This document shows positions 175 through 30,840 of a stretch of 64,000 bases of DNA, piece by piece. The notes under the pieces were generated by a model. That model did not search any database and was not told where the DNA came from. It was given only the letters and a program-made list of their open reading frames with translations. The position numbers were made by a program, and so were the translations under genes. Source of the stretch: a phage; assembly GCA_012549035.1 (NCBI GenBank), contig GCA_012549035.1_4805.1; one strand, given 5' to 3'. Numbering within the stretch: the first letter of the stretch is position 1; every line of letters begins with the position of its first letter.

Positions 175-1047
175 TTAGGCCGATGGTGCAACGCCGCCCG
201 TCACCGTAAATATATCATCACGACTTGCTAAATCATATTCAAGTTGCATGATGACAAATGTGGTGTCGTTCAAGCTTGGGTTTAAGACTGATTTGAATTT
301 CACACCTTGGGCAAGCTTCAAATCCGCGTTATACATGCAAGTGAAGTCAGCACCCCACTCGTTCCACATCGGTATTCCGACAAATTCCTCAATCACCGTT
401 ATCTGTTCTGGATTCAGAATTTTGTCTTTATCCTTGACGATGAGCGTATCATCATCGATATATGCCGCAATAGAGTTCCTTTGATAGTTCTGAATCTCAA
501 GCAACAAGGCGGCTGCAACATATGTTGTGCGGCCTGGGTTAACAAGGCGCTGATTGTTAATCGAAGTATCGCATATAACAGTATCAATATCCATTTGCTT
601 TGCCGACCACTCCACAAACTCTTTGAATGTTGGGTTTGACGGTGCAGCTTGAGTGATAAACTTAGTCCTGTTTATCTGGTTGGTGTAGCAAGTGATGCGT
701 ATGACGATGTTCGGCGGCGGCGCTGTTATCTCGACCGTTGTGACTTGCCCCTTGTAGACTAAGTTGCTACTAACAACGTTGCCTTCTCTATATCCAGCTT
801 CAATTGTTACGTTGACATAATTCGCCGCCAATTGGCCTTGATCACGCAGACGTTTGTTGAATGCGGTGAAGTTGGAAAGCAGGTACTCTCTCAAGTACCC
901 TGTCAATCCTGCAACTTCGATTGTGGCCTTATTCTGCACGGAAAGTGCTGCCTTTTTGATTCGGCATCTGAGCATCAATCCTTCATCAAGCACTTGGCTT
1001 GTGCCATCCGGCATAGATAAGGTGACTTTAAGGATTCTCTTTTTCAA
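175..1047 (-). CDS. putative tail/baseplate protein (290 aa)
   Basis: Long ORF directly downstream of the tape-measure gene on the same strand; track start is TTG, first ATG at 1014; no motif recognised. Confidence 0.5.
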   Translation of the reverse strand: MKKRILKVTLSMPDGTSQVLDEGLMLRCRIKKAALSVQNKATIEVAGLTGYLREYLLSNFTAFNKRLRDQGQLAANYVNVTIEAGYREGNVVSSNLVYKGQVTTVEITAPPPNIVIRITCYTNQINRTKFITQAAPSNPTFKEFVEWSAKQMDIDTVICDTSINNQRLVNPGRTTYVAAALLLEIQNYQRNSIAAYIDDDTLIVKDKDKILNPEQITVIEEFVGIPMWNEWGADFTCMYNADLKLAQGVKFKSVLNPSLNDTTFVIMQLEYDLASRDDIFTVTGGVAPSA

Positions 1048-1051
1048 ATTA

Positions 1052-3232
1052 TCACCACTTCAAAGGTGTAGCAGTAAGGTTGTTTATGTCGTTGATATCA
1101 TCTTGTTCAAGCACCCGTTTCGTTTCGAATGCCGTGCTGCGTGGGTCTTGAGCGCCGTTGACGTTGATGACAACGTTTTTCTGACCCATAGTAATATCAC
1201 GCCCACCAGGTCGACTATTCGCGGAAAGGTCGCCGCCATATTTCTGGAATGCTTCAAGCTGGAATGCAGCAAGACGAGCGTTTTTCATCGCTTCGGCTTG
1301 AATGTTCGGTCTTACACCTGGAGTTGAAGCCAGTTGCATGTTTTTAATATAATCCCTTTGCGTGCCAAGCTTAAGGTAAGTTTGAGCAAAGTCAATATCA
1401 CCTTTGTTGACTTGTCCCTGCATCAACTGCTCAACTGGTACGTTCAGGTATCCTGCAATGGCTTCTTGCAATTGCCTGTATTGCACCGTTTGGCGCGATT
1501 GGCCTTGTACTGGTGCATAGCTGCCCTTTGGCGCTTCCGCTCCGCTACCGCTAAGTACTGGAGTAACTGGTGCACCTTGCGGCGCTGCCGTGGCATACTC
1601 ACCATTGGATTGTCGGTCGAGAGCGGCCATGACCTTTCCAGGATAAGCGCGTGTATTCTTGCCCCAGCCGCTGCGGTCGTAGCCACCGTGATACATCGTC
1701 AGCGCAAGATTCCAATCGCCGTTGGCAGCGTTTAAATACTCTTTCAACAGTTGAGCGCCGCCCATAATGTTTTGTCGAGGATCATTGCCATCGGTTATTC
1801 CAAGACCCTTGAAGTTAGAAGGCATTATTTGCATCAAACCAGTCGCGCCTGCTCCGCTCACAGCATTTGGATTGAATCCAGATTCAACTTCAGTCACGGC
1901 CTTCATCATCGCCACAGGTATGCCATAGCGTTTTGAAGCTTCCTCATATATTGAGTCATACGCTGTCGGGTTTCCTGACCCAAGATTATTCCCTATGGTC
2001 GCGCCAGTATTCAATGCAGGCGTTCCAGGCATCGCGGATTGCCCTGCGCTGCGCCCAATTTCACCTGCCCATGCCGCCCAAGCTTGACGCTCATCAATCA
2101 CGCCAGCAAAAGTTGACACGGCGCTTGAAAAAAGATTTATATCACGAGTGAAAAGCGCCTGTGCAGAACGTTGTTCAGCAGCGTTCTGCTCTTGATTCCT
2201 CTGGCGTTTCACATCGCCGTCTGCCATCTGCGTGATCCATCTATCAACGGCACGCTCGTGACGCTCGTTGACAGCGGCCTGCTTGTCGAACGGATGTTTC
2301 AAGTCAGCAATGAAATTGTCGACAAATTCGCTCCATCCGTCAGACATTCTTTGGAACATCATCTGGAATCCTTCGACTGTATCGGCGGTTTTGCTGACAA
2401 GCGTCGAGAATGCAGGCATAACGTTTTCACCGATGACCAGTTCAATACGCCGCCAATCTTCTTGAATTTGCCCCATACTATTTCGTATAGTCTCAAGAGC
2501 AGCTTGCTGTCTTTGCAGCTTCGCGGTTTCTTCGTCACTTATGCGCGTGCTTTCTTTCACAGACTGGTTGCGCTCACGAAGGGCGCGGACTTCATCAGCC
2601 GTGAATCCTGCCAGAGCACCAATGGCACGCGCGGTTTGCTCATTAACACTTCTCAGCTTTGTTCCAATTTCATCAAGCAGCTGATTCGTGTCTTTGATGC
2701 CGCCGTTACTGTTGAAAGGACTTGCCCCCATCTTGTTCAGCAACAAGTTGTCCTTGTTCATCACATCAGGGTTGGTGTATGCATTGAATGCCAAATTAGA
2801 AGCTTTGCTGATTAAATCGCGCGACCCCTGTGCGCCAAGGATGCCCCCTGAACTTTCATTCAACTGTCGTTGTAGTTGTTCGACACCCATTGGAGAGAGT
2901 CCGGCTTCAAAACCAAGCTTTCTTTGCGCTTCGTATTCTTTTCGAACATCAACGATGGATTTGACGACGACGGCCAATCCTGCGACAACAGGAACGAGCG
3001 CGGCAAAACGATATGTCAGCCGCGCAAGGATTCCGTCAATAGACCCCAGTTCAGCTGTGAGAGGCTTCAGCTCACCAAACACATCTTTGAATGCTCCGGT
3101 GAAGTCTTTACCAGCGGCCTTTGCCTTTTTGTTTGTCTGATCAACCTTATCTTGCAATTGCTCAAGACGATTGATGGACTCTTTCAAGTCCACCGTATAT
3201 TGAAGCACAAATTTTTCTAATGAGTCAGACAC
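1052..3232 (-). CDS. tail tape measure protein with soluble lytic transglycosylase (SLT) domain
   Basis: 726 aa; N-terminal coiled-coil-like region and hydrophobic segment AALVPVVAGLAVVV; SLT-like block VTEVESGFNPNAVSGAGATGLMQIMP...AQLLKEY; lies after the tube/assembly genes. Confidence 0.8.
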   Translation of the reverse strand: MSDSLEKFVLQYTVDLKESINRLEQLQDKVDQTNKKAKAAGKDFTGAFKDVFGELKPLTAELGSIDGILARLTYRFAALVPVVAGLAVVVKSIVDVRKEYEAQRKLGFEAGLSPMGVEQLQRQLNESSGGILGAQGSRDLISKASNLAFNAYTNPDVMNKDNLLLNKMGASPFNSNGGIKDTNQLLDEIGTKLRSVNEQTARAIGALAGFTADEVRALRERNQSVKESTRISDEETAKLQRQQAALETIRNSMGQIQEDWRRIELVIGENVMPAFSTLVSKTADTVEGFQMMFQRMSDGWSEFVDNFIADLKHPFDKQAAVNERHERAVDRWITQMADGDVKRQRNQEQNAAEQRSAQALFTRDINLFSSAVSTFAGVIDERQAWAAWAGEIGRSAGQSAMPGTPALNTGATIGNNLGSGNPTAYDSIYEEASKRYGIPVAMMKAVTEVESGFNPNAVSGAGATGLMQIMPSNFKGLGITDGNDPRQNIMGGAQLLKEYLNAANGDWNLALTMYHGGYDRSGWGKNTRAYPGKVMAALDRQSNGEYATAAPQGAPVTPVLSGSGAEAPKGSYAPVQGQSRQTVQYRQLQEAIAGYLNVPVEQLMQGQVNKGDIDFAQTYLKLGTQRDYIKNMQLASTPGVRPNIQAEAMKNARLAAFQLEAFQKYGGDLSANSRPGGRDITMGQKNVVINVNGAQDPRSTAFETKRVLEQDDINDINNLTATPLKW

Positions 3233-3235
3233 AGT

Positions 3236-3652
3236 TTACCCCTTGTTTGGAGTCTCGCCGCTGAGGAATGGCGCGATTAATCGCATCGATTCGCCGATGA
3301 ATGCTGCAGCCATTTCGCCGCCAGCTTGTTCCCAGTAGCCTTCACGCTCGGCGTGAGTATCTGGGTTTATACCGTTCTCCATGAGGACTGCTTCGAAGAC
3401 TTCTTTAAGGTTTTCCCAGTCACCAAGATGGTTGTCAATTAGTGCACCAGTACTTAATGGGATTTCTTGGCCCACATCAAGCTCGACTTTTGCGAAGCTC
3501 AACACTTCCATCGTATACTCTGAACGAAAAGCAGGGTCTTTCGACATTGCAAATTCGACAAAGCGACGCTGAATATTCCAGCCTTCCATCGCAGTCATTT
3601 TGCTGATTTTAATTTCTACTGTACGACCAGTTTGTTTGTTGGTGATCTTCAT
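3236..3652 (-). CDS. hypothetical tail assembly protein (138 aa)
   Basis: ORF packed tightly immediately upstream of the tape-measure gene, same strand. Confidence 0.55.
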   Translation of the reverse strand: MKITNKQTGRTVEIKISKMTAMEGWNIQRRFVEFAMSKDPAFRSEYTMEVLSFAKVELDVGQEIPLSTGALIDNHLGDWENLKEVFEAVLMENGINPDTHAEREGYWEQAGGEMAAAFIGESMRLIAPFLSGETPNKG

Positions 3653-3653
3653 T

Positions 3654-4214
3654 TTATATTCCTACTGTTGATTTTATTTTATTATATAACGAACTCACAG
3701 TTGTAGTCAAACTGACTGGTTCTTTAATAGCAACACCATTTGATGATTCGTCTGCAGATTGTTTAGGGTCGAAGCTTCCTTGAATGCTAAATGACGTTTG
3801 CTCGAAGGTTATTACTATTGAGACTCCATTCAAGTTTTCTTCTGACTGGGTTATTTCAACGTCGGACATCGACATTTTACTGGCAATGATGCTTCGTGAA
3901 GTTATTGAAAATGTGACTTCGTCATCATCAAATGAATTTATGATATTTTCAATTGTAGACTGGTCATTGCAAATTACGTTTAACGCCATATGGGCTGGCA
4001 TTACAACCTTTGTCGCCTGTAAATTGCTTACTGATGACGTGCTTGATACTTCGACAACCTGCATGGCTGTACCAGCAAGAGGGAATTGAGTTGTTTCTGC
4101 TGGGGATGTTATTTCTGCAGAAACAGGTGAAAGCCTTGTCCAGACAGGAAGACCTGTTGACTCATTCGTTATGGTCAAAGATTGACCAGAAAGCAGAATC
4201 GAAACGAAGTCCAT
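3654..4214 (-). CDS. hypothetical tail protein (186 aa)
   Basis: ORF in tail module, 1-nt spacing to neighbours. Confidence 0.55.
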   Translation of the reverse strand: MDFVSILLSGQSLTITNESTGLPVWTRLSPVSAEITSPAETTQFPLAGTAMQVVEVSSTSSVSNLQATKVVMPAHMALNVICNDQSTIENIINSFDDDEVTFSITSRSIIASKMSMSDVEITQSEENLNGVSIVITFEQTSFSIQGSFDPKQSADESSNGVAIKEPVSLTTTVSSLYNKIKSTVGI

Positions 4215-4747
4215 CAGAACATCCCCTTGATACCATTCATCACCTTTGTAGCGACGCCAGTGACGCTGGCAGAAGTTTCTTTTATGTATGCAATGCCGCG
4301 CTCTATTACTGTTGAGTCGCCTGCCTGCGCTGTTTGAATAGACACATCCTGCTGTGTTAATATCTCATGGAAGACCAATTGTATGGGCTGAGACGTTATA
4401 TTGTCAGCGTCCTGGCTGAAGTTGTTATTTTGCAGCACCATACGTTCGAATATTAGACCACGGGAATTAATTGTGTATATAGTCGACCTGTTTTGCAACA
4501 TCTTGGCTATTGCATCTGATGCGCTTTTCGTCTGAGCTATCACGGTGACAGTGAGTATTCGCGGCATCTTTACTCTGCCATCGACAATATAGCTGCCGTC
4601 TTCCCTTTGGTTTTTGAATATCTTCGCTTGGAGTCTTATTTTGACGTTGACTATGGCCCATCCAAGCGTGGATACTTCTCCAAGGTTGAAGCTCTTTATC
4701 GTGAAGCTTCTGTTTGATAGACTATATGACAGTAAATCGATAGCCAT
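4214..4747 (-). CDS. hypothetical tail protein (177 aa)
   Basis: ORF in tail module, overlapping stop/start with neighbours. Confidence 0.55.
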   Translation of the reverse strand: MAIDLLSYSLSNRSFTIKSFNLGEVSTLGWAIVNVKIRLQAKIFKNQREDGSYIVDGRVKMPRILTVTVIAQTKSASDAIAKMLQNRSTIYTINSRGLIFERMVLQNNNFSQDADNITSQPIQLVFHEILTQQDVSIQTAQAGDSTVIERGIAYIKETSASVTGVATKVMNGIKGMF

Positions 4748-5244
4748 TAAATGGACCCCAATATGCTCTGCGCCACGCCCTTGGCAATTTGAGACGTGCT
4801 CTGCGCGCCGCCGTAGCTGGCAAACACAAATGTGTATCGGTTTGTCTTGCGACGGCCTGATTGCTCTATGGAGTCACCAAGCGGACCGCTGATTATTGTT
4901 CCGTTAGAGAATGCCACCCTTCCACCGTCAGGATATGTAATAAGCATTGATGTCACATCCTGAATTGGCAACCACTTGAATCCCCCTTTACGGGCAGATA
5001 ATAAAAGCTTAAGATTTATGTCATCTTCAGTGTTTGGAATGACCGCAATGGATACGCGAACGACGGCGGCTTTGTCGTATATGCAAATGCCGCCGTCGTA
5101 AGTAAGTTGATAACCTACTGATTCAACTTCCTCAATAATTAGCGAATCCTGGTCATCAGACAAAGAACTGATATTCAGCCCAACAGGAAAAGATTGAAGA
5201 GCGACAATTCTAATGCTTGTGCCAAATCCACTAATATTGACCAT
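4747..5244 (-). CDS. tail tube-like protein, paralog of 6195..6662
   Basis: N-terminus MVNISGFGTSIRIVALQSFPVG aligns with MINVSGFGASIRLVASNTFPNG of 6195..6662; further shared blocks along the length. Confidence 0.6.
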   Translation of the reverse strand: MVNISGFGTSIRIVALQSFPVGLNISSLSDDQDSLIIEEVESVGYQLTYDGGICIYDKAAVVRVSIAVIPNTEDDINLKLLLSARKGGFKWLPIQDVTSMLITYPDGGRVAFSNGTIISGPLGDSIEQSGRRKTNRYTFVFASYGGAQSTSQIAKGVAQSILGSI

Positions 5245-5246
5245 GT

Positions 5247-5513
5247 TTACTCCGCAGATGCAGATTTAACTGCAGCAAGAATTTCATCCTTATAAGAAAG
5301 ACCCTTGATGTCGATGCCATTTTCTTTGGCATAAGACTTCAATTCTGAAACGCTCATGGAATCAAAATCGAGTTTTTGTTCAACGGACTTTTCTTCGACC
5401 TGCTCTTTGATTTCTGTAACAGACTCAACCTTCTTATTAAACAGCTCTGATGCGTCTTCAAATTTTTCGCCAAATTTCATGACGCCATTTGCAAAATGAA
5501 TTACTTGTGCCAT
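5247..5513 (-). CDS. hypothetical acidic protein (88 aa)
   Basis: ORF in tail module, tightly packed. Confidence 0.5.
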   Translation of the reverse strand: MAQVIHFANGVMKFGEKFEDASELFNKKVESVTEIKEQVEEKSVEQKLDFDSMSVSELKSYAKENGIDIKGLSYKDEILAAVKSASAE

Positions 5514-5869
5514 TATTGATTACTCACCTTTATACGTTCGCCATAAATAGTCACCACTTCTGCAGTGAATCCAAGGATACCGTTTTGGATGGTGACAGTC
5601 AATGAGTCGATTCCGGCAACGTCTGCTTTCTTCAGAATAGCATCTGCAATCGACTTTCGCGCACCGTCTTCGTCAACGGGCGACTTGAAAACGGTCCCCA
5701 AATAATCGACCCCGTTTTCTATATCGTACAAGTCTTCACCAAGTCGCATCTGATGCGCGGCCTTGATTACTTGCACCATCGCTTTTTCTCCTGAAAGAAT
5801 ATTTAAGTTTCTTCCATCAGGTAGAAAAAGGTCATTATTTTCGTTCACTTCAATGGTTAGAGTTGTCAA
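5513..5869 (-). CDS. hypothetical tail protein (118 aa)
   Basis: ORF in tail module, overlapping start/stop. Confidence 0.5.
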   Translation of the reverse strand: MTTLTIEVNENNDLFLPDGRNLNILSGEKAMVQVIKAAHQMRLGEDLYDIENGVDYLGTVFKSPVDEDGARKSIADAILKKADVAGIDSLTVTIQNGILGFTAEVVTIYGERIKVSNQ

Positions 5870-6195
5870 ATTGCAAACTCCGCTTCAGCAGTGGCCTGGA
5901 ATTCAGCCAACTCAGATTCTGACATGTAATATAGATTACAGCCGCCAGAGTTAAACCTTTCATAATCAGGTACGCTGTCGAAAATGAAATTACCGTACCC
6001 AATCATGAGATACTTATAAGGCACCATTGGGATACCACCAAAACAGCGCACCCCTTGAATCAAAAGTTCACCATTGCGATATACGTCGGCACACATATGC
6101 TCGATAGCGGCAAAAATGTGCAACTGCCAATATGCACCGTCAACGTTAAAGCTGATATTCTGGTTAGGTACGCTGTCAAGTGGTATTTGATACAT
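5866..6195 (-). CDS. hypothetical tail protein (109 aa)
   Basis: ORF in tail module, overlapping start/stop. Confidence 0.5.
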   Translation of the reverse strand: MYQIPLDSVPNQNISFNVDGAYWQLHIFAAIEHMCADVYRNGELLIQGVRCFGGIPMVPYKYLMIGYGNFIFDSVPDYERFNSGGCNLYYMSESELAEFQATAEAEFAI

Positions 6196-6662
6196 TATAA
6201 AATCTCTTGGTTGCTCACGCCAGTTTTGACTACGTTCTCAAACTTGAAGCGATATTGACGTGTTTTCACACGACCTTGAGACTGGATGCCAGGAATTACT
6301 GAACCAGTTGTCAAGGTGCCTTTGTTTAGCGTGATAACCATTCCAGAAGGATAAGTCAGCACAAGTGTGATCACGTCTTTTGCGGAGTTCTTGCGCTTGC
6401 CTACGCGGTTTGCAGCTGCAAGAACGTCCAAGTTGACATCACTTTCAGAAGTAGGGATGATGTTCACACCTACTTCAAGCGGGTTTGCACGGTTCCACAC
6501 TACTAAGTCACCGTTAAGGCCCATTGCAGCCTCAGAGATTTGCAGGTCCGGCGCGTCAATCGGATCAGCATCATCTGCAAAATCAGAAAGGGTCACACCA
6601 TTAGGGAAAGTGTTTGATGCTACCAAACGAATCGAAGCGCCAAAACCGGAAACGTTAATCAT
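6195..6662 (-). CDS. tail tube protein (155 aa)
   Basis: Immediately downstream of the sheath gene; paralogous to 4747..5244. Confidence 0.6.
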   Translation of the reverse strand: MINVSGFGASIRLVASNTFPNGVTLSDFADDADPIDAPDLQISEAAMGLNGDLVVWNRANPLEVGVNIIPTSESDVNLDVLAAANRVGKRKNSAKDVITLVLTYPSGMVITLNKGTLTTGSVIPGIQSQGRVKTRQYRFKFENVVKTGVSNQEIL

Positions 6663-6709
6663 TACAGATTCCTCTCAGAGAGATGGCCGCCAGTTACGGC
6701 GGCAATTAT

Positions 6710-8248
6710 TTAAATAAGAACGTCACGACCTTCAACGCGACGCACAGCATCATCTTTAGAGTAGATTAGCGTGTATGTTGCATAGTATTCGGTGCGGTTA
6801 TCGGAAGTGGTTTCAGTGTCAAAATCGACAGTCAACCAATAACCGATAGTCTCAACCTGCCGCCAAGCAGTGTTATCACCGGAAGTTTGCGTGATGTACT
6901 GTTTCTGGATTTCCGTCAGCGCCTTACCGACAGAGATGGTGCCGTTAACCTTCGCATTGTCAACAGCAACTTGAATCATTGCTTGTACAGTCGCTTTGCC
7001 TTCTTCGTTTGCAGGCACGCGACCAAGATTCAAGAACATGCTGAACAGCTGAGAAGTGATAGCAGATTTAAGCCACATCTCGTTGGCATAAGTGTTCATA
7101 TCAACTGCTGCGGTAGACCCGCCCATCAGAACACCACGCTGGAAGAACGCGAGAGTTTGACCAGCTTGCTGAGTCGCACCGATATAGTTTGCACGGTTTT
7201 GATCAGCAGTATCTGCGCGTGAATCAGTCGATACGGTTACATTTCGCGTTTCAAACTGATAATACATGTAGTTTTGAGTTGCATTTACAGTGTTATAGTT
7301 TGTCGCCGCGAGAATTTCAGCAGGTGCCTGGTCGATGTAATCATTCGCGAGGTTAGTTGCACGGATCATCATACCAACGCCTGAATAACCTTTCAACGCG
7401 GTATAGTATGAGCCGATGTTGGCGAATGCAGTCGAGAACAGATACATGTACATGTTGTTCTGCGAGTGAGTCCAAGCTGCAACGGCTGTGATTTCTTCCA
7501 GCGTTCGGTCTGCTCCAGCGAAAAGGAATGAGCCAAAGTTGTTGGAAATCTCCACAGATGCCGCGATGGCTTCTACCGGACTTGCTACACCCTGGCCAGC
7601 AACCGTAACGGTGCCAGTAGTCGTCCAACCAAGCGCCTGAGATGGGTCTGTAGGTTGGCCTGTGACGTTAATCGAAAGGTTTCCAGCGCCAGCGGTCGAC
7701 GTAGCGGCTTCCAAAGTGAACTGCTGGGTGTTGGCATTCCAATACACTTCTGCATCAGCAAGTGCAGGCACCGACGTGCCACCTTCTGCTGCAAACTTGG
7801 TGTTGATTGCCGTTTCCAAAAGTTCCGCTACGTTGGCAAGGCTTGTTGCCGCTGAAAGGTTGATGGCGTCAGTCAGGTAGTCTGTGCCGTCATAAGTGAT
7901 GCTTAAGATAGCGCCAGTGAATGCCTGGAAAGTGGCAAGTGTTTTAGGCTCAGTGTCGCCGATAACCATTGCAGGAATCGCCGTGGATACAACGCGAGAA
8001 AAGCTGATTGAATCAGGCGAGTTGATTTGCTTGCTGATGAATCCGAAATACAGTGCTGCACGCTTGTATTCTTCGGAAGAAAAACCGAAATATGATCCAA
8101 CGGCATCAGCAGTTGAAAATTCTGCTACAACGCCTGGCGGCAGAACTGTATTGGAAGTCATGATGCGAAGCGACAGTTTGCGAACTGCAACAGCCGCGCC
8201 TGCTCCGACCCCTGATACAATTTTAATATAACGAGATTGACTGATCAC
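6710..8248 (-). CDS. tail sheath protein (512 aa)
   Basis: Size, position upstream of tube, Gly/Thr/Ala-rich composition typical of contractile sheath proteins; family assignment from recollection only. Confidence 0.65.
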   Translation of the reverse strand: MISQSRYIKIVSGVGAGAAVAVRKLSLRIMTSNTVLPPGVVAEFSTADAVGSYFGFSSEEYKRAALYFGFISKQINSPDSISFSRVVSTAIPAMVIGDTEPKTLATFQAFTGAILSITYDGTDYLTDAINLSAATSLANVAELLETAINTKFAAEGGTSVPALADAEVYWNANTQQFTLEAATSTAGAGNLSINVTGQPTDPSQALGWTTTGTVTVAGQGVASPVEAIAASVEISNNFGSFLFAGADRTLEEITAVAAWTHSQNNMYMYLFSTAFANIGSYYTALKGYSGVGMMIRATNLANDYIDQAPAEILAATNYNTVNATQNYMYYQFETRNVTVSTDSRADTADQNRANYIGATQQAGQTLAFFQRGVLMGGSTAAVDMNTYANEMWLKSAITSQLFSMFLNLGRVPANEEGKATVQAMIQVAVDNAKVNGTISVGKALTEIQKQYITQTSGDNTAWRQVETIGYWLTVDFDTETTSDNRTEYYATYTLIYSKDDAVRRVEGRDVLI

Positions 8249-8260
8249 GTCGGTGTCCTC

Positions 8261-8746
8261 TTATTTAATGACTTGGCTGTTGACAGATTGCCACATAAGG
8301 CTGCTGTGAATTAAAGGTTTGTCGAATCCTTTCACACGCACGGTATATCTGGCGTTTCTTTGCCAAGGTCCGTTTTTAATTGATTCGACAATCTTTGCTT
8401 CCATCGCAAGCCCAATCTGACCTAATGCCTGTCTAGCGTCTATTTTACCGGAAAAAATCTTTTTAGCAATTTTATTCTCTATTTCACTGCGATCACTAAC
8501 GAATAATTCATAGGCATATCTCATGAATGGTCTGGGTGGCACTTCTACCCTGACTGGGCCTTGTCCAAAGTTCAAAACGGCTATGTGACCAAATTCATTA
8601 AGCCGCGCGACTTCTGACACCAACATCCCTTCTCCACCAGTTTCTGAAGGGTATCTGGTAGAATCAAACCATCCTGCCTCTACAGTAAGACCCTTCATCG
8701 ATTGAAGCGCCTTTATCTGTTTTTCTATCATTTTTGATTTTGTCAT
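8261..8746 (-). CDS. hypothetical head-tail connector/neck protein (161 aa)
   Basis: ORF between capsid and sheath genes. Confidence 0.5.
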   Translation of the reverse strand: MTKSKMIEKQIKALQSMKGLTVEAGWFDSTRYPSETGGEGMLVSEVARLNEFGHIAVLNFGQGPVRVEVPPRPFMRYAYELFVSDRSEIENKIAKKIFSGKIDARQALGQIGLAMEAKIVESIKNGPWQRNARYTVRVKGFDKPLIHSSLMWQSVNSQVIK

Positions 8747-8747
8747 A

Positions 8748-9329
8748 TCACACCGGAATATCGCCTAAATCGTTATTAACAGCTCTTGCAACAGCAGGCG
8801 TGTCAATTGAAATTGCGTTTCTGTGAAGGATTACCAAATCAAAAGAAGGAAACGATTCAAATTGCGACATGTCGTCATAGAACTTTTCATTGTTGTTCAT
8901 GTCGACTCTATATACTGAAGCTTGATGCTTTTTAAACCAATCTCTCAAATTAGCCTTGTGGGTTATGAATCTTGCTAAATAAGTCAAAACGTCATTAGCC
9001 GTAGGCTTTTCTGGATTGCCAGGGACTTCTGGAAATAAACCGCTAATTTGAAGACGTGTTGCGTATATCTGATCTTCAATATCTTTGAATTTTCCATTAA
9101 CGAATTGAGATTCATCATTGACAAATTCATTCTTTCTCATCGACCAACCGAATGGAACTGAGAATAAAAGGTTAAACCAAATCTGATCACCAGTCGGAAT
9201 GCCCTGTTGAGTCGGTTGGTATTTTTTCTGGACCGGAACAGCAGAAAGGTCTGCACGACTATACGCCGCCAGACCTTCTTCAATTCGCGTTGCCAGCATG
9301 TCAATCAGGTCGACATCTGTCATATACAC
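8748..9329 (-). CDS. hypothetical virion protein (193 aa)
   Basis: ORF in connector region. Confidence 0.5.
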   Translation of the reverse strand: MYMTDVDLIDMLATRIEEGLAAYSRADLSAVPVQKKYQPTQQGIPTGDQIWFNLLFSVPFGWSMRKNEFVNDESQFVNGKFKDIEDQIYATRLQISGLFPEVPGNPEKPTANDVLTYLARFITHKANLRDWFKKHQASVYRVDMNNNEKFYDDMSQFESFPSFDLVILHRNAISIDTPAVARAVNNDLGDIPV

Positions 9330-9330
9330 C

Positions 9331-9717
9331 TCAAGTAGACACTGGAAAGCTTTGTTTTACTTCCACGGCAAGGCAAGACGTCCAACCATCTTGGTCAAAC
9401 CATGTCGTTTCATCTTCCATCTTGTACGTTTTGCCACCAAACACAAAATAGTCGCCGGAAGCGTCGCGGTCAAGGTCAACAATGTCTTTGTCCACCCAGA
9501 TTTTGACATAGTTCTTTTGAAGCTCTAAACCAAGCTCAACGTATTGGTTTCGAAGTACAGCCTGCACCGAAGCAAGTAAGGTGATTGGTTCTTCATATGT
9601 AGTGACATAGTTGCGCATTTTATCAAGGGTGCGCCCCTTGTACATGTAATATTGAATCGGTTGGCGACCGATAACCTTTGTCGCAACTCGATATAAGTTT
9701 ACGCCAGGAATCCTCAC
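9331..9717 (-). CDS. hypothetical virion protein (128 aa)
   Basis: ORF in connector region. Confidence 0.5.
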   Translation of the reverse strand: MRIPGVNLYRVATKVIGRQPIQYYMYKGRTLDKMRNYVTTYEEPITLLASVQAVLRNQYVELGLELQKNYVKIWVDKDIVDLDRDASGDYFVFGGKTYKMEDETTWFDQDGWTSCLAVEVKQSFPVST

Positions 9718-10178
9718 CAGAATACCCCACCAATTTTACGAAATCCTTCGCGCTCTGGAAGACCACCGAATGACAAGCCACCAACGGCCAATGCTTGAAG
9801 AAGCGCCCACAACGCCATGCCATATGGAGTGCTTGATAGCCAGTATTCCCAGCCATCACTCGCAGGCGGCGCGACTTTGTTCACTGTGATGTCACCAATT
9901 GTTGCGCCAGTCACGAAGCCGCCTTGTTCAACTCCGTCACCAGAAGACACAGACACTTGTTGGTCTGCGGCTATGCATAAAAGATGAGCCGTCATATATT
10001 CCAATGCCAGCTCCAATTTACTGCCATTTAAAACACGACAAGGACTGTCTTGTGATTCAATAAATTCACATGCCATGTCATAGAATACTTGAAGTGTTGT
10101 GTCAGGGAATTTAACCTGATCAGCAAACTGTGGAAATTTAATTCTGAACTTTTCGTAATCTAATGACATGGCATTCAC
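9714..10178 (-). CDS. hypothetical virion protein (154 aa)
   Basis: ORF in connector region, 4-nt overlap with downstream gene. Confidence 0.5.
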   Translation of the reverse strand: MNAMSLDYEKFRIKFPQFADQVKFPDTTLQVFYDMACEFIESQDSPCRVLNGSKLELALEYMTAHLLCIAADQQVSVSSGDGVEQGGFVTGATIGDITVNKVAPPASDGWEYWLSSTPYGMALWALLQALAVGGLSFGGLPEREGFRKIGGVFW

Positions 10179-10183
10179 CTTAT

Positions 10184-10648
10184 TTAAACGCGGAATAAAT
10201 CATCTTCTTGGTCGCCGCTCAACTTTACCTTGATGCGCTTGTCAGCAGTTTCGCGCGTCATAGGCGCAAACGGGTCGTCTGACATGCTGCGAACTTCTTT
10301 AGCGACGGCTTTGTGATTGCCAACAATGTCGTGATTTACGACTTTCACCAAACCTTTTTCAAGATGCTGCTTAAACACGTGATGATCTTTCAGATGCTCA
10401 AAATCTGCATCGCTTACAACGGTGACGATTCCTTCAGGAGTCCACAAAGGTGCACCGTCAGCGCCTTTTGCCATTTCACCAAAGCCGGAAGTTGCTGAAG
10501 TAAGACCAGCGCCACCCTTGATCAGAATCTGTTTGCGGATGTTTGGAAGAGCGCCTGAACCAGCTTTTGCATTCGGGTTTTCTTTCACTTCCGTATAGAA
10601 GGTGTAGTTAACTGACATAGACATAGTTGAAACGATGTATTTTGACAT
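10184..10648 (-). CDS. hypothetical head completion protein (154 aa)
   Basis: First ORF downstream of the capsid gene. Confidence 0.5.
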   Translation of the reverse strand: MSKYIVSTMSMSVNYTFYTEVKENPNAKAGSGALPNIRKQILIKGGAGLTSATSGFGEMAKGADGAPLWTPEGIVTVVSDADFEHLKDHHVFKQHLEKGLVKVVNHDIVGNHKAVAKEVRSMSDDPFAPMTRETADKRIKVKLSGDQEDDLFRV

Positions 10649-13956: not shown

Positions 13957-14066
13957 CCACCCTCAAATAAGTATTGTGTATTATATCTAATGAAAAAAAC
14001 TTAGGCAAACAATAATTATGGTTTGAATATGTATAACAACCGATATAGCCGCGCCTTTATTAGTGT

Positions 14067-14346
14067 GATACGGATGATACGGATAAAATGAGGCGTATTT
14101 TTATCCGTATCGGTGTATAAGCCGCGCTATCACTGGTGTGCTACGGATGATACGGATGATACGGATACTTTTCATATATAAGAGTTTATAAAAAAAAATA
14201 AAATTAAATTATATATATAATTTTAAATTAATTTATTTGAATTCCTATATAGTACGGCGGCAACGCGTATCATCCGTATCATCCGTAAGATTCTTTTGAA
14301 AACAATAACTTACTTGATACGTATGATACGTCATTATACGTATAAA
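14067..14346. repeat. iteron-rich intergenic region A (9-bp GATGATACG-type units, AT-rich core)
   Basis: TACGGATGA x3 tandem at 14143-14168; GATACGGATGATACGGATA at 14067-14085; inverted copies TATCATCCG x2 at 14265-14293; AT-rich palindromic core 14170-14250. Confidence 0.7.
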
Positions 14347-14373
14347 ACTCGCGGCAATCCTTTGCCGATGAAT

Positions 14374-26778: not shown

Positions 26779-26995
26779 CCTGCCGCGCAGGAGTGTACTG
26801 CAAAATTCCTGTGGGTACAAAATAGTACGGTACTGTCTAGGGCTTTTTCTTTGAAAAGTTAGTGGACCAAATGTGTCGTATTTTGATTAGTGTACCGCAA
26901 ATTTCATCAAGTACCAAAACGCACCAAAAGACCCATGCCATAAAAACCACACGAACGCAATAATCAATCGCCGTTACAGTTTCCAGCGTTACAAT

Positions 26996-27056
26996 TCGAA
27001 AGCGAATGATTCGACGCATAATAATATGAAGCACAATGATTCGAAAGCGAATGATT
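26996..27056. repeat. direct repeat ATTCGAAAGCGAATGATT x2
   Basis: Two copies about 44 bp apart inside the 600-bp non-coding gap. Confidence 0.6.
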
Positions 27057-27373
27057 GTGTGTAGGATAATATCGGTGGGGATTATTCGAGATGCATGTAA
27101 TTTCGCATGCGTACTATTTTCGGGCGAAGGGTCGGCATATTCCTCGTTTTAGTTCGGAACGAAGGGAAAGTTTTGCGCCTTTATAAAACAACGACTTACG
27201 CGACCCGCCCTAACGGTCCGATATAGGTGTCTATATAAAACAAGGACTTACTCGATGTTCTCCATTTAACGTAATACCTGTTATGCGAACTAAGGCGCAT
27301 CTCGATGAAGATTATGCGACGAAGAAGGGAAGGATAAAGGAGTTTTTTGCGGAGAAGCGCATCGAGATAGGGA

Positions 27374-27401
27374 CGAAGAAAAGCCGCGACTAAGCGCGGC
27401 C
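27374..27401 (-). terminator. intrinsic terminator (minus strand)
   Basis: On minus strand GCCGCG-cttagt-CGCGGC followed by TTTTCTTCG, 26 nt after stop of 27427..27636. Confidence 0.55.
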
Positions 27402-27426
27402 TATTAGTAACGGTGGGTGATTATAA

Positions 27427-27636
27427 TTAAAGGAATAATCCGGCGCGTTTAATTTGCCCAAGGACGTTATCGCGACGGCGACGCATAACCGCGTATTTAA
27501 CTTCTTCTTCGTATCCCCAGCCGCCGATGGATAACATCGCGTTCATATTATCGCATAATTCCTTAAGCTCGCGAAACATATCGATTACGGCGGTGCGATG
27601 GGCGCGCGCGTTAAGAGAGTTATTCATATTAGTCAT
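27427..27636 (-). CDS. hypothetical protein (69 aa)
   Basis: RBS AAGGAG; second gene of a two-gene minus-strand operon; CpG-rich codon usage. Confidence 0.55.
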   Translation of the reverse strand: MTNMNNSLNARAHRTAVIDMFRELKELCDNMNAMLSIGGWGYEEEVKYAVMRRRRDNVLGQIKRAGLFL

Positions 27637-27646
27637 TTTCTTCTCC

Positions 27647-27937
27647 TTAAAGGCTTACGATTTTAAAGTAAGTTACTTCGCCGCCGAGTTGCGGTACAGC
27701 GATATATTCGCCGCCGATTTCGGTGATCGTATAAACGAATCCGTTAATCGTTACGCGGTAGGATACGATGTCCTCGTCGCGATACTTGTAAAGGTCGAGG
27801 AAGTTGATCGGCTCATAAATAGACTCGATAATCGCGTCGACGTTAGAGAGATAAACGCTCTCTAAGGTTTCGCCAAATACGTTAGAGTTTTCGGAAGTTT
27901 CGACGCGAGCGGCGCGGATAGCGGATAAAGTAATCAT
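27647..27937 (-). CDS. hypothetical protein (96 aa)
   Basis: RBS AGGAG 6 nt upstream of ATG; preceded by promoter cassette and leader hairpin. Confidence 0.6.
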   Translation of the reverse strand: MITLSAIRAARVETSENSNVFGETLESVYLSNVDAIIESIYEPINFLDLYKYRDEDIVSYRVTINGFVYTITEIGGEYIAVPQLGGEVTYFKIVSL

Positions 27938-27961
27938 AATATTCTCCTAGTTAGTCGGGAG

Positions 27962-27982
27962 GGTAGCGACCTATTCGCTACC
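27962..27982 (-). promoter_or_regulatory. conserved 5'-UTR hairpin (cassette copy 1)
   Basis: On minus strand GGTAGCGA-atagg-TCGCTACC flanked by GGGA...TCCC; covaries with copy at 28524..28544. Confidence 0.45.
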
Positions 27983-28004
27983 TCATCCCCTCTCGATATA
28001 AAAC

Positions 28005-28033
28005 ATTATAGCCTTAGTGTACGAATAAGTAAA
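28005..28033 (-). promoter_or_regulatory. promoter cassette copy 1 (TTTACT-N17-TATAAT)
   Basis: Minus-strand GCTTTACTTATTCGTACACTAAGGCTATAATGTTTTATATCGAGAGGGG; near-identical to the 28473 and 28403 copies. Confidence 0.5.
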
Positions 28034-28043
28034 GCACTTTTCG

Positions 28044-28346
28044 TTATTTTGCGATAAAATATTTGTAAGCCTTATCGCCTTCTACGTCGATATACTCGAC
28101 GATAATTAATGCTTCGCCGCGCGGCGTAACCGTCTCGATAAGGGTAACGGCTTCGTCGTCGGTCTTCGCGAAGCGGATGGCGCTACGTTCGGCGTACTTG
28201 ATATCGTCGAAGGAAAGACCGACGAAGGCGACCGCGCGGACCTTAATGGCGCTAGATTCTAGTTCGGCGTTAACGGCGGCGATAAGAGAGCGAACGGTTA
28301 AACGGTCTTCGTCGTAAGTAAGGATGGAAGAGATTAAAGTGGTCAT
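28044..28346 (-). CDS. hypothetical protein (100 aa)
   Basis: ATG at 28346 with GGGAG-TTTTATT-ATG arrangement identical to neighbouring genes; track N-terminal TTG extension rejected. Confidence 0.55.
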   Translation of the reverse strand: MTTLISSILTYDEDRLTVRSLIAAVNAELESSAIKVRAVAFVGLSFDDIKYAERSAIRFAKTDDEAVTLIETVTPRGEALIIVEYIDVEGDKAYKYFIAK

Positions 28347-28402
28347 AATAAAACTCCCGATGCTAGTGGAAGGAAGGGCCATCGCCCGTCTCGATATAAA
28401 CA

Positions 28403-28430
28403 AGTATACGTGAGTGTACGAAGAAGTAAA
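28403..28430 (-). promoter_or_regulatory. promoter cassette copy 3 (TTTACT-N16-TATACT)
   Basis: Minus-strand CTTTACTTCTTCGTACACTCACGTATACTTGTTTATATCGAGACGGG. Confidence 0.45.
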
Positions 28431-28472
28431 GAAAAAGATAAATAATTTATCTCATTTTTATCGAAAAAGTGC

Positions 28473-28500
28473 TTTACTTTTTTCTACACTATATTATAAT
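28473..28500 (+). promoter_or_regulatory. promoter cassette copy 2 (TTTACT-N16-TATAAT)
   Basis: GCTTTACTTTTTTCTACACTATATTATAATGTACTCATATCGGGACGGG upstream of gene 28570. Confidence 0.5.
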
Positions 28501-28523
28501 GTACTCATATCGGGACGGGATGA

Positions 28524-28544
28524 GTTGACGAATAGGTCGTTAAC
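28524..28544 (+). promoter_or_regulatory. conserved 5'-UTR hairpin (cassette copy 2)
   Basis: GTTGACGA-atagg-TCGTTAAC with compensatory changes relative to the 27962 copy; followed by CTCCC-AAACT-AGGAG-ATG. Confidence 0.45.
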
Positions 28545-28569
28545 ACTGCTCCCAAACTAGGAGTTTATT

Positions 28570-29208
28570 ATGGCCAGTTTGAATCGTTTCTCCACCAGCG
28601 GCGACGTAATCGCAACCAAGACAGCCGACCTCGTTGCATTCTATAACGAAAATTCAGGCTCAAAGCCGATTAAAAAATTCGCGGACCGCCGGACCGCCGA
28701 GACTCGCGTAATCGCGTTAATCGAGTCCTTAAACGCGCTCGATGAGCCGTCCAACGAATCGCCCATCCCAGACGTGAAGGCGCGTGAGGAAGTGTCCAGC
28801 GATGTAAAAACGCATAAGGCGCGTGCGGTCGTTAAAAAGGCTGAGCCGACCCAGGAAGAACTCGACGCGATGAGTGATGAAGAGTATGAAGCCTTCGTTA
28901 AGAGCAGCCTTAATAGCGCTCCGGTTGGCGCTCCGGTTGGCGCGGATAAAATTGCCAGCCCTTCCCATCGCCGTTCGAATAGCGAAGGTATTGCAAAAAG
29001 TTGGGATAACAAGGAAGTGGCGCAAAAGCGTCTCACCCGTAACGGCGTTATGGTCGAGGGTGTAGGCGAGTTCAAATCGGTCCGCGTAGCGTTCGCCGCG
29101 CTGGGATTACCGGATAGCAAGCACATTCGCTTCCGCATGAAGCTTAAAGAAGCTGGACGCTTGAACTTCGAGTTCGGCAACAAGTCCTACACCTTCCAGA
29201 TTATCTAA
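28570..29208 (+). CDS. hypothetical protein (212 aa)
   Basis: RBS AGGAG; CpG-rich codon usage; Ala/Pro-rich linker APVGAPVGA; terminator directly downstream. Confidence 0.65.
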   Translation: MASLNRFSTSGDVIATKTADLVAFYNENSGSKPIKKFADRRTAETRVIALIESLNALDEPSNESPIPDVKAREEVSSDVKTHKARAVVKKAEPTQEELDAMSDEEYEAFVKSSLNSAPVGAPVGADKIASPSHRRSNSEGIAKSWDNKEVAQKRLTRNGVMVEGVGEFKSVRVAFAALGLPDSKHIRFRMKLKEAGRLNFEFGNKSYTFQII

Positions 29209-29215
29209 TCGAATG

Positions 29216-29237
29216 GCGGCCCTTCGGGGTCGCTTTT
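29216..29237 (+). terminator. intrinsic terminator
   Basis: GCGGCCC-ttcg-GGGTCGC followed by TTTT; mirror image of the stem at 26752. Confidence 0.6.
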
Positions 29238-29258
29238 CATAGTGCAAATTGGTGGCTT

Positions 29259-29522
29259 ATGAATACGCTTATTCTCATCGCTACGTTGTCCATCGGAAGT
29301 GGTCGCACCTTATCCCTTTATGATCATAGTGCAAATTGCGCTTACCCAACGCGCGTTGCGGCGATAGTTAATAGTGCAAATCGAATGCTATTCGAGACTT
29401 GTTGGCGGGTCGATAACGAGAAAGGGCGCATCGTCTTAGGTTATAGTGCAAATCTGCTGGTGGAGTCGTTCGACTGGACGGCGGAAGGTCGTAAATTGTT
29501 ACGTAAAGTGACTAAAAGATGA
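29259..29522 (+). CDS. possible small protein (87 aa) overlapping repeat array
   Basis: ORF with island-type codon usage; three in-frame motif copies each encoding SAN; may be non-coding. Confidence 0.35.
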   Translation: MNTLILIATLSIGSGRTLSLYDHSANCAYPTRVAAIVNSANRMLFETCWRVDNEKGRIVLGYSANLLVESFDWTAEGRKLLRKVTKR

Positions 29523-29583
29523 CTTATAATAATACACTTTCTAACGCGTTTATGGCTGCAGCCTTCCCCGTCGTATTACCGAT

Positions 29584-29624
29584 GGCCCTAGAAGTGGAGA
29601 AAATGTGTTCTAGGGCCGTTTTAT
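29584..29624 (+). terminator. terminator-like inverted repeat
   Basis: GGCCCTAGAA-N14-TTCTAGGGCC followed by GTTTTAT. Confidence 0.45.
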
Positions 29625-29636
29625 AGTGCAAATTGG

Positions 29637-30110
29637 CTAGTGGCGGGAGAATTGCTCACCCTCTTTGGCCGCCTCTCCAAAATCCTTGTAGAAATCGTCC
29701 ATGGAACGGCCCATTTTACTATTGCCATTCTCATCAATCATCGTGATGCCGTAGATGATATTCAGTTCACGAATGGCATTAAGCTTGGCTGATGCCGCGA
29801 CTTCTGGATCACGCACAAGCTTCACTAAATTGTGAATGGAACTCTTTACACTCCACAATTCCTTCAATGGCATCTCTTCCATACGCTTTTTGTAGCGCAT
29901 CTTGTAGTACGGATTGCGTTGCGTGCAGAGGATTCGCTGGCCAGTGTAGTTATCGGTCGCAACCTCCATGCCAAATACTAGTGCAAAAGCTGCGCGCATG
30001 TCATGGCCCTGAATAACAAGGTCAATGAACTCATCGAATAATGCCTGATTATGCTCTGCAAATCGCGGGTCTTCAAAGTCTTCAGGCATTGCTACATAAT
30101 CTTGACTCAT
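29637..30110 (-). CDS. hypothetical protein (157 aa), possible small terminase-like DNA-binding protein
   Basis: ATG at 30110 lies inside a motif copy; track TTG extension to 30305 rejected; weak resemblance to small-terminase N-terminal helix pattern, identity uncertain. Confidence 0.55.
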   Translation of the reverse strand: MSQDYVAMPEDFEDPRFAEHNQALFDEFIDLVIQGHDMRAAFALVFGMEVATDNYTGQRILCTQRNPYYKMRYKKRMEEMPLKELWSVKSSIHNLVKLVRDPEVAASAKLNAIRELNIIYGITMIDENGNSKMGRSMDDFYKDFGEAAKEGEQFSRH

Positions 30111-30338
30111 AGTGCAAATCCCATAGTGCAAATTAATAGTGTGAATTATACAATGATTGAACATTATATTCAAGTGCAGATTGATGTTCAAATTGGCTGT
30201 AAACGTACATAAATCATAGTGCTGAATGAATATCGGACCGTGGTGCGTGGTGTACTGTTTGATACGTATAAAAGAAATCCATCCCTTTCGCCGCTTGTTA
30301 TGCAAATCAATGACTTAGCCGCTGCTGGCTGGTTGAAG

Positions 30339-30612
30339 CGTATCATGACGTATCATCCGTATTGCCGCAAGTCTTTGTTTTTACTTATATCTTACGGATA
30401 ATACGTTAAATATATAAATTAACATAAGTATGAGGATGTAGAAAAAAATTAATTTAAATTAATTCAAAATGGAGTTAATTAATTTTTGAAATAATTCTGG
30501 TTACAATAAGGAAAAATGGCGTATCATCCGTATCATCCGTAAGATTCAGTGTACAAATCCAGGCGCGGCGCACCCTAGCGCCATGATACGGATAAAAACC
30601 TATCCGTAAGAG
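30339..30612. repeat. iteron-rich intergenic region B
   Basis: CGTATCAT(G/C) tandem units at 30339-30364 and 30519-30547; 29-bp segment GCGTATCATCCGTATCATCCGTAAGATTC identical to 14265-14293; AT-rich palindromes at 30410-30490; AATCCAGGCGCGGCGC x2. Confidence 0.7.
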
Positions 30613-30840
30613 TGTACGCTTCAAGCAAAGAATCCAGGCGCGGCGCGGCTTTCGCCACCACACACCACGGTTCACTCTCCAAAATCCGCACACTAAATTC
30701 CAAAATCCAATGCTCATACTCCAAAAATAAATCAAAATTTCCATTTTATTTATTATTTTCATCCACAATATCCTAAATTCTATCCGTATCAACCATGCCT
30801 CAACCCACCACTATTCACGCCACTCACTTCAAAATTTCCA

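Follow-up and report, generated by a model that had tools for sequence, protein, structure and literature searches.

Exclusion of CA and TG from a gene block in the terminal repeat of a Wifcevirus

Why should a short block of small genes differ so sharply in composition from the phage genome in which it lies? The question is posed by positions 27374-29640 of a 64,000-nucleotide stretch of phage DNA (GenBank assembly GCA_012549035.1, contig GCA_012549035.1_4805.1), referred to below as the window. An original prediction, made from the letters alone, saw here a CpG-rich island of small genes, framed by terminators, served by its own promoters and acquired horizontally as a host-takeover or anti-defence cassette. 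The block is very probably a module within the terminal repeat of the phage, and what sets it apart is the near-absolute loss of one dinucleotide pair, CA and TG, which is highly unusual.

The window represents a Wifcevirus, a PB1-like myovirus of E. coli, and the 3 kb around the island are 93-96% identical to 29 Wifcevirus genomes. Wifceviruses are myoviruses of E. coli and Shigella with genomes of ~68 kb, distantly related to the PB1-like phages of Pseudomonas (PMC11990801). Five genes occupy the block, each at the coordinates predicted for it:

27427-27636, minus strand: g69, accessory gene, 69 amino acids, phrog_10377 ('transcriptional regulator', by annotation only)
27647-27937, minus strand: g96, small acidic protein, isoelectric point (pI) 4.2, without His, Cys, Trp or internal Met
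28044-28346, minus strand: g100, small acidic protein, pI 4.7, without His, Gln, Cys, Trp or internal Met
28570-29208, plus strand: g212, 212 amino acids, PB1-like core gene, phrog_4730, N- and C-terminal domains conserved
29259-29522, plus strand: g87, small conserved protein with a hydrophobic N-terminus

Variable sites in ten aligned wifcevirus genomes fall at codon positions 1/2/3 as 0/2/7 in g69, 30/23/48 in g96, 15/9/41 in g100, 11/19/88 in g212 and 3/4/23 in g87. Since variation is concentrated at third codon positions, in contrast to the flat distribution (20/24/26) that marks 26927-27380 as non-coding, all five are real genes. This includes g87, offered at first as a possible open reading frame, which also has a homologue in Kylevirus (29% identity, E 5e-11).

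Exclusion of a dinucleotide pair

The CpG anomaly noticed at the outset is real, the observed/expected ratio (o/e) being 1.83 in 27374-29640 against 1.13 in the window, with a peak of 2.1-2.2 in 27001-28500 at an ordinary G+C content (0.45-0.48). CpG is not, however, the primary signal. Between 26927 and 29640 the o/e of CA falls to 0.55, against 1.16 elsewhere, and that of TG to 0.61, against 1.19, whilst CG rises to 1.84 (elsewhere 1.10) and TA to 1.12 (elsewhere 0.66); the sum of the pyrimidine-purine steps is unchanged. An index of CG+TA versus CA+TG, taken in 1-kb windows, reaches 0.66 in the island and has a value of -0.157 +/- 0.076 outside it, with a maximum of 0.088. On a sliding-window comparison at this scale the island stands more than 10 standard deviations from the rest of the window. 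The anomaly begins to the left of the predicted interval, at ~27050, and has two parts:

27050-28450: core of the CA/TG-excluded zone, 8-17 CA+TG per 300 bp against ~40 elsewhere, index 0.55-0.78
28451-29640: intermediate zone, CpG-rich and partly depleted of CA/TG, index 0.2-0.35

The CA and TG that remain in the core are found mainly in Met codons, in promoters and at codon junctions. All trinucleotides containing either dinucleotide are depleted, CAG/CTG by 16-50 fold. The two are lost equally on one strand (31/32, 24/24, 28/27 and 33/26), and the depletion continues in non-coding DNA past the terminator. Residues that can be encoded only with CA or TG all but disappear: His, Cys, Trp and internal Met are absent from g96 and g100, and Gln occurs at most once in each. 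At a related locus, L021, two complete genes (690 nt) are free of CA and TG except in their ATG start codons.

At what level does the rule operate? Codon context was compared between fifteen island genes from five lineages and control genes. Where an NNY codon is followed by A, its third base is C in 37 of 240 cases in the island genes and in 451 of 681 in the controls (P 3e-44). Where G follows, T is used in 26 of 443 and in 450 of 965 cases, respectively (P 3e-60); the synonymous choice between C and T before C or T has no comparable bias. NCA:NCG is 7:102 in the island and 315:256 in the control, NTA:NTG is 95:11 against 96:229, and sense-strand CA and TG lie at 0.06-0.35 of control at every codon phase. 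Because it crosses codon boundaries, strikes CA and TG equally and holds in non-coding DNA, the rule acts on the CA:TG step of the duplex. CpG and TpA are raised because they are the synonymous replacements for CA and TG. Thus the preference for TCG, CGA, ACG, CTC and TTA codons that had been taken as a mark of the island is present, but as a synonymous consequence of the exclusion. Adaptation to codons or tRNAs was rejected, since the third base chosen varies with the base that opens the following codon. As a sequence property the exclusion of CA and TG is undescribed, as far as a literature search could find.

Two further candidate causes were rejected. No word exceeds its Markov expectation across lineages, which disposes of a repeated binding motif, and enrichment of the H-NS-type TCGATAAATT was set aside on the dinucleotide steps of the words concerned: those of the CGATAA and TCGATA type hold only CG and TA steps, which are enriched anyway. 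GATC has an o/e of 0.18 in the islands of the window, of Pantoea phage Kyle (locus L005), of Serratia phage MTx (L018) and of loci L021 and L023, whereas control regions from these phages give 0.43. CTAG is concentrated in the window's island, at ~7 times its density over the remaining sequence.

Position within the terminal repeat

The terminal repeat was placed by homology to the ends of the Ro157lw record and by the prediction made for Mansfield, the window holding a single copy. Ro157lw carries identical 3533-bp sequences at both ends, which map to 30470->26927 of the window, and the island therefore lies wholly within the terminal repeat. For Mansfield a direct terminal repeat of 3673 bp over the same genes was predicted by PhageTerm (PMC6753283). 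The elements of the repeat are as follows:

26927-30470: direct terminal repeat, one collapsed copy in the window; 30470 is the left physical end and 26927 the inner boundary
26927-27380: non-coding distal end of the repeat, with flat variation and direct repeats (family D4) at 26994-27072
27381-27402, minus strand: intrinsic terminator after the leftward genes, -12.7 kcal/mol, then a U-tract
28005-28033, minus strand: g96 promoter, TTTACT-17-TATAAT, with conserved leader and ribosome-binding site (repeats I1, I2, I4)
28403-28430, minus strand: g100 promoter, TTTACT-16-TATACT
28473-28500, plus strand: g212 promoter, TTTACT-16-TATAAT
29215-29238, plus strand: intrinsic terminator after g212, -18 kcal/mol, z -3.6
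29581-29625: bidirectional terminator between g87 and terS
29637-30110, minus strand: terS, the small terminase subunit gene, within the repeat and of ordinary composition

In the second copy of the repeat, 26927 is the right physical end of the genome. Starting at the left physical end one meets, in order, an AT-rich terminus, terS, g87 and g212 (both transcribed toward the left end), the divergent promoters, g100, g96, g69, ~450 bp of non-coding DNA and the repeat boundary. The CA/TG-poor zone forms the distal part of the repeat and stops ~100 bp before the inner boundary; in the last 100 nt (26927-27030) TG occurs 10 times and CA twice in the record orientation. Where it borders the CA/TG-free zone, the strand with its 3' end at the right terminus is rich in TG and GT for its final 100-200 nt, with a TG:CA ratio in this terminal stretch of 10:2 in the window, 25:3 in Kyle (L005 3400-3603) and 13:5 in MTx (L018 3400-3566). 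Over the proximal 1.5 kb of the repeat it is the opposite strand that is TG-rich, strongly so in MTx and Kyle.

Both the framing terminators and the internal promoters of the original prediction were recovered. The three near-consensus sigma-70 promoters have 9-10 of 12 consensus matches and a perfect -10 hexamer in two of them, figures that describe consensus matches only. A promoter, leader and ribosome-binding site cassette (GTGCTTTACTT...TACACT...TATAAT, followed by a shared leader of ~70 nt) is present in three copies, before g96, g100 and g212, and no further copy occurs within the window. From this layout, the block is plausibly a self-contained early or pre-early expression module.

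A composition set by the locus

Is the unusual composition carried by the genes or imposed by the place? All PB1-like phages share g212 as a core gene (356 records), and the g96, g100 and g87 families extend across genera at 29-49% identity or less with synteny conserved. A comparison of synteny finds g96, g100, g212 and g87 in all 10 aligned wifceviruses and in other genera; only g69 and a few inserts are sporadic. The accessory g69 is found in ~10 wifceviruses and in 308 genomes of Klebsiella Webervirus, where its o/e values are ordinary (CG 1.2-1.3, TA 0.5-0.6, CA 0.9 and TG 1.7-1.9). In the window the same gene has CG 2.33, TA 1.3, CA 0.3 and TG 0.7. Because the Webervirus homologue is ordinary, it is the locus that imposes the composition. 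Extra genes found at the locus in other wifceviruses show the same CA/TG bias.

The Myosmarviruses possess two g212 paralogues (in Serratia phage WR01, L006 1690-2196 and 5254-6288). That inside the zone is nearly CA/TG-free, whilst the other, outside it, has a long N-terminal extension and ordinary composition, and the pair constitutes a within-genome natural control for the effect of the locus. Gene gain and loss within the island is centred on hotspots at 28037, 28554 and 27431-27656. Most relatives have an extra gene of ~350 bp, a paralogue of g96, at 28554; F13 and ECO71P1 have inserts at 28037; and g69 is missing from 7 of the 10 aligned genomes.

The same CA/TG-poor zone, ending 50-150 bp before the repeat boundary, is present in Kyle, with a repeat of 3603 bp, and in MTx, whose repeat was set at 3566 bp by PhageTerm (PMC6588376). 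The zone itself recurs in Serratia phages WR01 and MyoSmar and in two metagenomic lineages of like synteny, so that its range takes in Kylevirus, Myosmarvirus and these two lineages. Amongst 79 IMG/VR loci encoding the g212 family, a minimum CA/TG o/e of 0.13-0.29 was reached only in Wifcevirus, Kyle, MTx and MyoSmar, the value being at least 0.54 in the ~70 others, with G+C contents from 0.48 to 0.68. Nothing comparable was found near g212 in Pseudomonas PS44 or Xanthomonas XcP1.

Together this evidence shows the proposal of horizontal acquisition to be largely wrong, the bias being imposed by the locus and the core genes and synteny being conserved across genera. The cassette remains a fair description of a self-contained unit with its own promoters and terminators, a turnover of genes and small acidic proteins; its foreign origin does not stand.

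Maintenance by selection

How is the exclusion maintained? In the ten wifcevirus genomes 101 of the 291 sites of g96 are variable, yet each genome retains only 5-13 CA/TG in this gene against ~41 expected, and g100 has 3-11 per genome. Variants creating a CA or TG make up 58 of 157 segregating transitions, where 42% of the possible transitions would create one. At 25 of 36 polymorphic sites of this kind it is the CA/TG allele that is in the minority; in the flank this holds for 45 of 95. Double differences that pass directly between CG and TA, with no intermediate, number 4-7 in 1.4 kb of the island and 1 in 2 kb of flank. The exclusion has been held across codon boundaries, and at the cost of five amino acids, while the proteins diverged to below 30% identity. 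Selection at the DNA level against CA:TG is, on these figures, highly probable. The anatomy of the block, its location in the repeat, the dinucleotide rule and the conservation and maintenance of that rule are matters of observation.

What may read the CA:TG step

What purpose would such an exclusion serve? To the explanation favoured here, taken as a whole, a probability of roughly 0.4 is given. The three strong sigma-70 cassettes would drive g96 and g100 (plus the accessory g69) and the core gene g212 as an early or pre-early module, from which selection on the DNA duplex would remove the CA:TG step. Under coding constraint, CA and TG would be replaced by their transition neighbours (NCA by NCG, NTG by NTA, NNC before A by NNT, NNT before G by NNC), and through this removal His, Gln, Cys, Trp and internal Met would be lost from the proteins. 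As with the first-step-transfer repeat of T5, the repeat would lie exposed in the cell at a time when phage protection is not yet established, and the earliest genes would be kept free of a word read by a duplex-reading enzyme, most likely a nuclease. The reader could be an early activity of the phage itself that degrades host DNA, or a host restriction system of the CAG/CACAG type. Outward-facing Chi sites may guard the proximal repeat instead.

What we infer in this scheme is that expression is early, in what order the DNA enters and what the reader is. The equal depletion of CA and TG on one strand argues for a reader of the duplex, rather than a single-strand reader such as primase, RecBCD or RecA. 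That a duplex-reading nuclease or defence enzyme is what the first-exposed genes shut out is put forward tentatively. The narrower proposal, that a very early enzyme reads only the CA:TG step or a highly degenerate word built on it, be it a phage destroyer of host DNA or a widespread enterobacterial defence, appears doubtful.

Published work on related systems provides a setting for the favoured explanation. T5-like phages are restricted only when sites fall in the terminal repeat (PMC10644984). How unmodified T5 DNA escapes the A1-dependent destruction that befalls the DNA of the host is still debated (10.64898/2026.04.02.716235), and it has been proposed that the first-entered DNA has no sites (10.1101/866236). 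Of the restriction systems tested against wifceviruses only EcoP1_I was effective, a result left unexplained by its authors (PMC11990801). The repeat of Bas99 has 6 AGACC sites, in both orientations, and 0 CACAG (4.9 expected), 0 EcoRI, 0 EcoRV and 0 EcoAI sites.

A Chi site bears on the order of entry:

29456-29463, plus strand: Chi site GCTGGTGG, oriented against RecBCD entering from the left genome end

The polarity of RecBCD and Chi is established, and is the basis of the argument from orientation. Chi sites facing the left end number 9 within 2 kb in Kyle, 6 in L021, 4 in MTx and 1 (at 29456) in wifceviruses. From their orientation the left end would be exposed to RecBCD, which in turn suggests that the repeat enters first. 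The island itself cannot hold any Chi, because Chi contains TG. In the proximal repeat the clusters lie at L005 255-1972 in Kyle, L018 179-1276 in MTx and 4138-5375 in L021, and the window has a one-mismatch copy, GCTAGTGG, at 29636-29643. A symmetric protective pair of Chi sites was considered and rejected, the reverse Chi at 28592-28599 being shared by no relative.

A number of points weigh against the favoured explanation. The Bas99 repeat does hold one EcoKI site, and CACAG is presumably the EcoCFT_II site, an assignment made from a matching site count (92). We know of no enzyme that reads a bare CA:TG step, and protein family searches found none encoded here. Avoidance of palindromes in the islands does not exceed that elsewhere (4-mers 0.86 against 0.92, 6-mers 0.70 against 0.71), GATC being the exception, and only slightly more words are absent (38.4% of 6-mers present, against 44.7%). 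The proximal third of the repeat, equally exposed in the model, is ordinary in CA/TG. ATG starts and promoters keep the pair, so single occurrences are tolerated. Lastly, for these phages the first-entering genome end is presumed, and so is a stepwise entry.

Other explanations

The main rival, unlikely but the strongest of those considered, is that the CA/TG-free zone serves the mechanics of the genome ends, in their replication, recombination or packaging. It could be a desert of primase sites that leaves a long 3' tail for strand invasion (the DnaG primase of E. coli starts at CTG), a region adapted to handling by RecBCD or RecA, or a run-up to the packaging cut. CA and TG are sorted relative to the termini in three genera, which points to end metabolism: the strand 3'-ending at the left end is TG-rich for ~1.5 kb and bears the Chi arrays, that 3'-ending at the right end is so over its final 100-200 nt, and the zone between is without both dinucleotides. 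The zone ends 50-150 bp before the boundary whichever genes are present, and CAG/CTG is the most depleted trinucleotide. Primase, RecBCD and RecA all predict strand asymmetry, however, whereas CA and TG are equally depleted on one strand, a symmetry that weakens the primase-desert and RecA ideas. Every NTG/CAN word is removed, not CTG alone, and the Pbunavirus and Xanthomonas relatives are without such a zone near g212.

Less probable still is a generalist avoidance of restriction, in which dropping one complementary dinucleotide pair shrinks the set of words and so the number of sites for enzymes not yet met. CA/TG would be the cheapest pair to drop because only rare amino acids are lost. Distinct 5-, 6- and 7-mers do fall below those of any comparable stretch of the window (z -4.4 to -5.7), and in T5-like phages only sites borne by the repeat matter (PMC10644984). 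The gain is nevertheless small, with 76.8% against 85.4% of 5-mers and 14.4% against 15.1% of bipartite 3-N6-4 motifs present, palindromes containing CG or TA become commoner, and palindrome avoidance is no stronger than elsewhere.

Selection on RNA, whereby transcripts avoid CA/UG to escape an endoribonuclease or to block internal or antisense translation starts, is quite improbable. The transcripts concerned are presumably, to judge from their promoters, the most abundant early ones, and in L021 the sole UG of two genes is that of the AUG start. But since sense CA and UG are depleted alike (0.06-0.35 of control) two separate RNA specificities would be needed, non-coding DNA downstream of the terminator is depleted too, and ACG, a site of the ChpBK type, is enriched.

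A local mutational bias in the distal repeat, arising for example through repair or resynthesis and acting without selection, is given equally little credence. It would account for coding and non-coding DNA being affected alike, and for the greater frequency of CG<->TA double differences in the island than in the flank. It would, however, need opposite transitions according to neighbour (C->T before A, T->C before G), and it fits poorly with CA/TG-creating variants that are common amongst segregating differences yet stay in the minority, and with the unaffected proximal part of the same repeat.

The view that the block is a horizontally acquired cassette keeping the composition of its donor is very improbable: the composition is atypical, and g69 and the inserts of relatives do move between genomes, but core genes and synteny are kept across genera in proteins only 29-49% identical, the g69 homologue outside is ordinary, the bias is at steady state despite heavy sequence turnover, and we know of no genome with a CpG o/e above 2 and CA/TG near 0.

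Comparison with known systems

A number of parallels can be drawn with systems already described. The first-step-transfer region of T5 resembles the present one in its long direct terminal repeat, its small genes of unknown function, its divergent sigma-70 promoters and the repeat-rich non-coding stretch at its inner boundary, and both T5 and this phage group have broad restriction resistance without DNA modification (PMC8594841, PMC10644984, PMC11990801). In T5 (AY543070, positions 1-64000) the terminal repeat, 1-10219, has a CpG o/e of 1.33, which drops abruptly at the repeat boundary to 0.77 +/- 0.11 for the 54 kb that follow; its CA/TG are only mildly depleted, at 0.94 against 1.02. T5 was therefore rejected as a full parallel, its repeat being CpG-rich relative to the rest of its genome but hardly CA/TG-depleted, and the CpG step may have the mundane cause that pre-early genes are read with host tRNAs only. 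Furthermore, the T5 repeat is 10 kb long against 3.5 kb here, the present phage is a contractile-tailed myovirus, and a two-step entry is for it no more than a supposition.

SPO1 offers a second likeness, in a host-takeover module that Stewart et al. are said to have placed, in 1998, in its terminal redundancy. Small early genes, repeated strong promoters and ribosome-binding sites, a terminal redundancy and a myovirus are common to both, whilst the genes are unrelated and the host is another. No dinucleotide exclusion has, to our knowledge, been reported in SPO1.

Avoidance of restriction sites is similar in that short words are selected out, most strongly where DNA is exposed first (PMC10644984); here, by contrast, a whole dinucleotide pair has been dropped and palindromes are avoided no more than elsewhere. 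The protection of linear DNA from RecBCD by Chi shares the correctly oriented GCTGGTGG cluster near a DNA end, although the Chi arrays here stand beside the island, outside it. With compositional islands that arise by horizontal transfer the block has in common its atypical composition and a gene content varying between close relatives, but its composition is set by the locus, not a donor, and its core is inherited vertically.

Repeat-induced point mutation in fungi leaves repeated DNA low in CpA/TpG and high in TpA. The present case is like it in the repeated sequence, depleted CA/TG and raised TA, a resemblance of index only, and unlike it in its raised CpG and in genes that are intact under purifying selection. 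With DNA-mimic inhibitors such as Ocr and ArdA, g96 and g100 have in common a small acidic profile only, and no family match was found. An early module in a terminal repeat is thus of a known kind; what is new here, as far as could be found, is the exclusion of CA and TG.

Proteins of the island

No family of known function was found for the five proteins in Pfam, PHROGs or PADLOC, nor, for g212 only, in sequence and profile searches of the PDB. Their only family matches are g69 to phrog_10377 and g212 to phrog_4730, a family of unknown function. Amongst the five there was likewise no Pfam, PHROG or PADLOC match to the A1 metallophosphatase, A2 or dmp. The g96 and g100 families are small and acidic (pI 4.0-4.7, net charge -5 to -20). 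Word-indexed searches returned only near-identical wifcevirus proteins, even when a profile of distant relatives was used, and an exhaustive search produced just two distant relatives of g96. AlphaFold2 models were too poor for a fold search, with a predicted local distance difference test score of 50.7 for g96 (10 sequences) and 46.7 for g212 (14 sequences), because diverse alignments were lacking. A protein 100% identical to the window's g212 is annotated on a 68,163-bp NCBI contig that bears the label Escherichia coli (P0019); the source is probably an entire phage genome entered as a bacterial contig.

Repeat arrays near the left end

Beyond the island the repeat contains a further element:

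29239-30133, plus strand: array of ATAGTGCAAAT, seven exact copies, set around and within g87 and on both sides of terS

All seven copies are on the plus strand and none is found elsewhere in the 64 kb. Two stand in tandem between the terS promoter and the terS ATG, one lies 10 nt ahead of the g87 ATG and one past the terS stop codon, and three are in frame within g87, each encoding Ser-Ala-Asn. Related arrays of T(T/C)GCACTA occupy the same section of the repeat in Kyle, L021 and L023. The array may be one of binding sites for the small terminase or a regulator.

In addition, at two sites, 14047-14348 and 30261-30790, copies of the 9-mer GATACGGAT form inverted arrays on either side of very AT-rich palindromic spacers; the first site is internal and intergenic, and the second straddles the left genome terminus (30470). 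The arrays may belong to origin-like elements or be related to the terminase.

Significance

The locus demonstrates that compositional islands in phage genomes need not indicate horizontal transfer, and that sequence alone can mark a stretch of DNA as acted on with extremely short specificity. It bears on what threats the DNA first exposed by virulent phages without modification has to evade, and on the restriction resistance of T5-like phages and wifceviruses without known protection. An early anti-defence module would also be of practical interest, wifceviruses and their Pseudomonas relatives being used or considered for therapy. If the narrower proposal of an enzyme reading little more than CA:TG is true, the first-expressed genes of these phages would be written in an alphabet of 14 dinucleotides, invisible to an enzyme that reads CA:TG, and this would provide an answer, at the level of sequence, to how unmodified first-injected DNA of the T5 type survives while the DNA of the host is destroyed.

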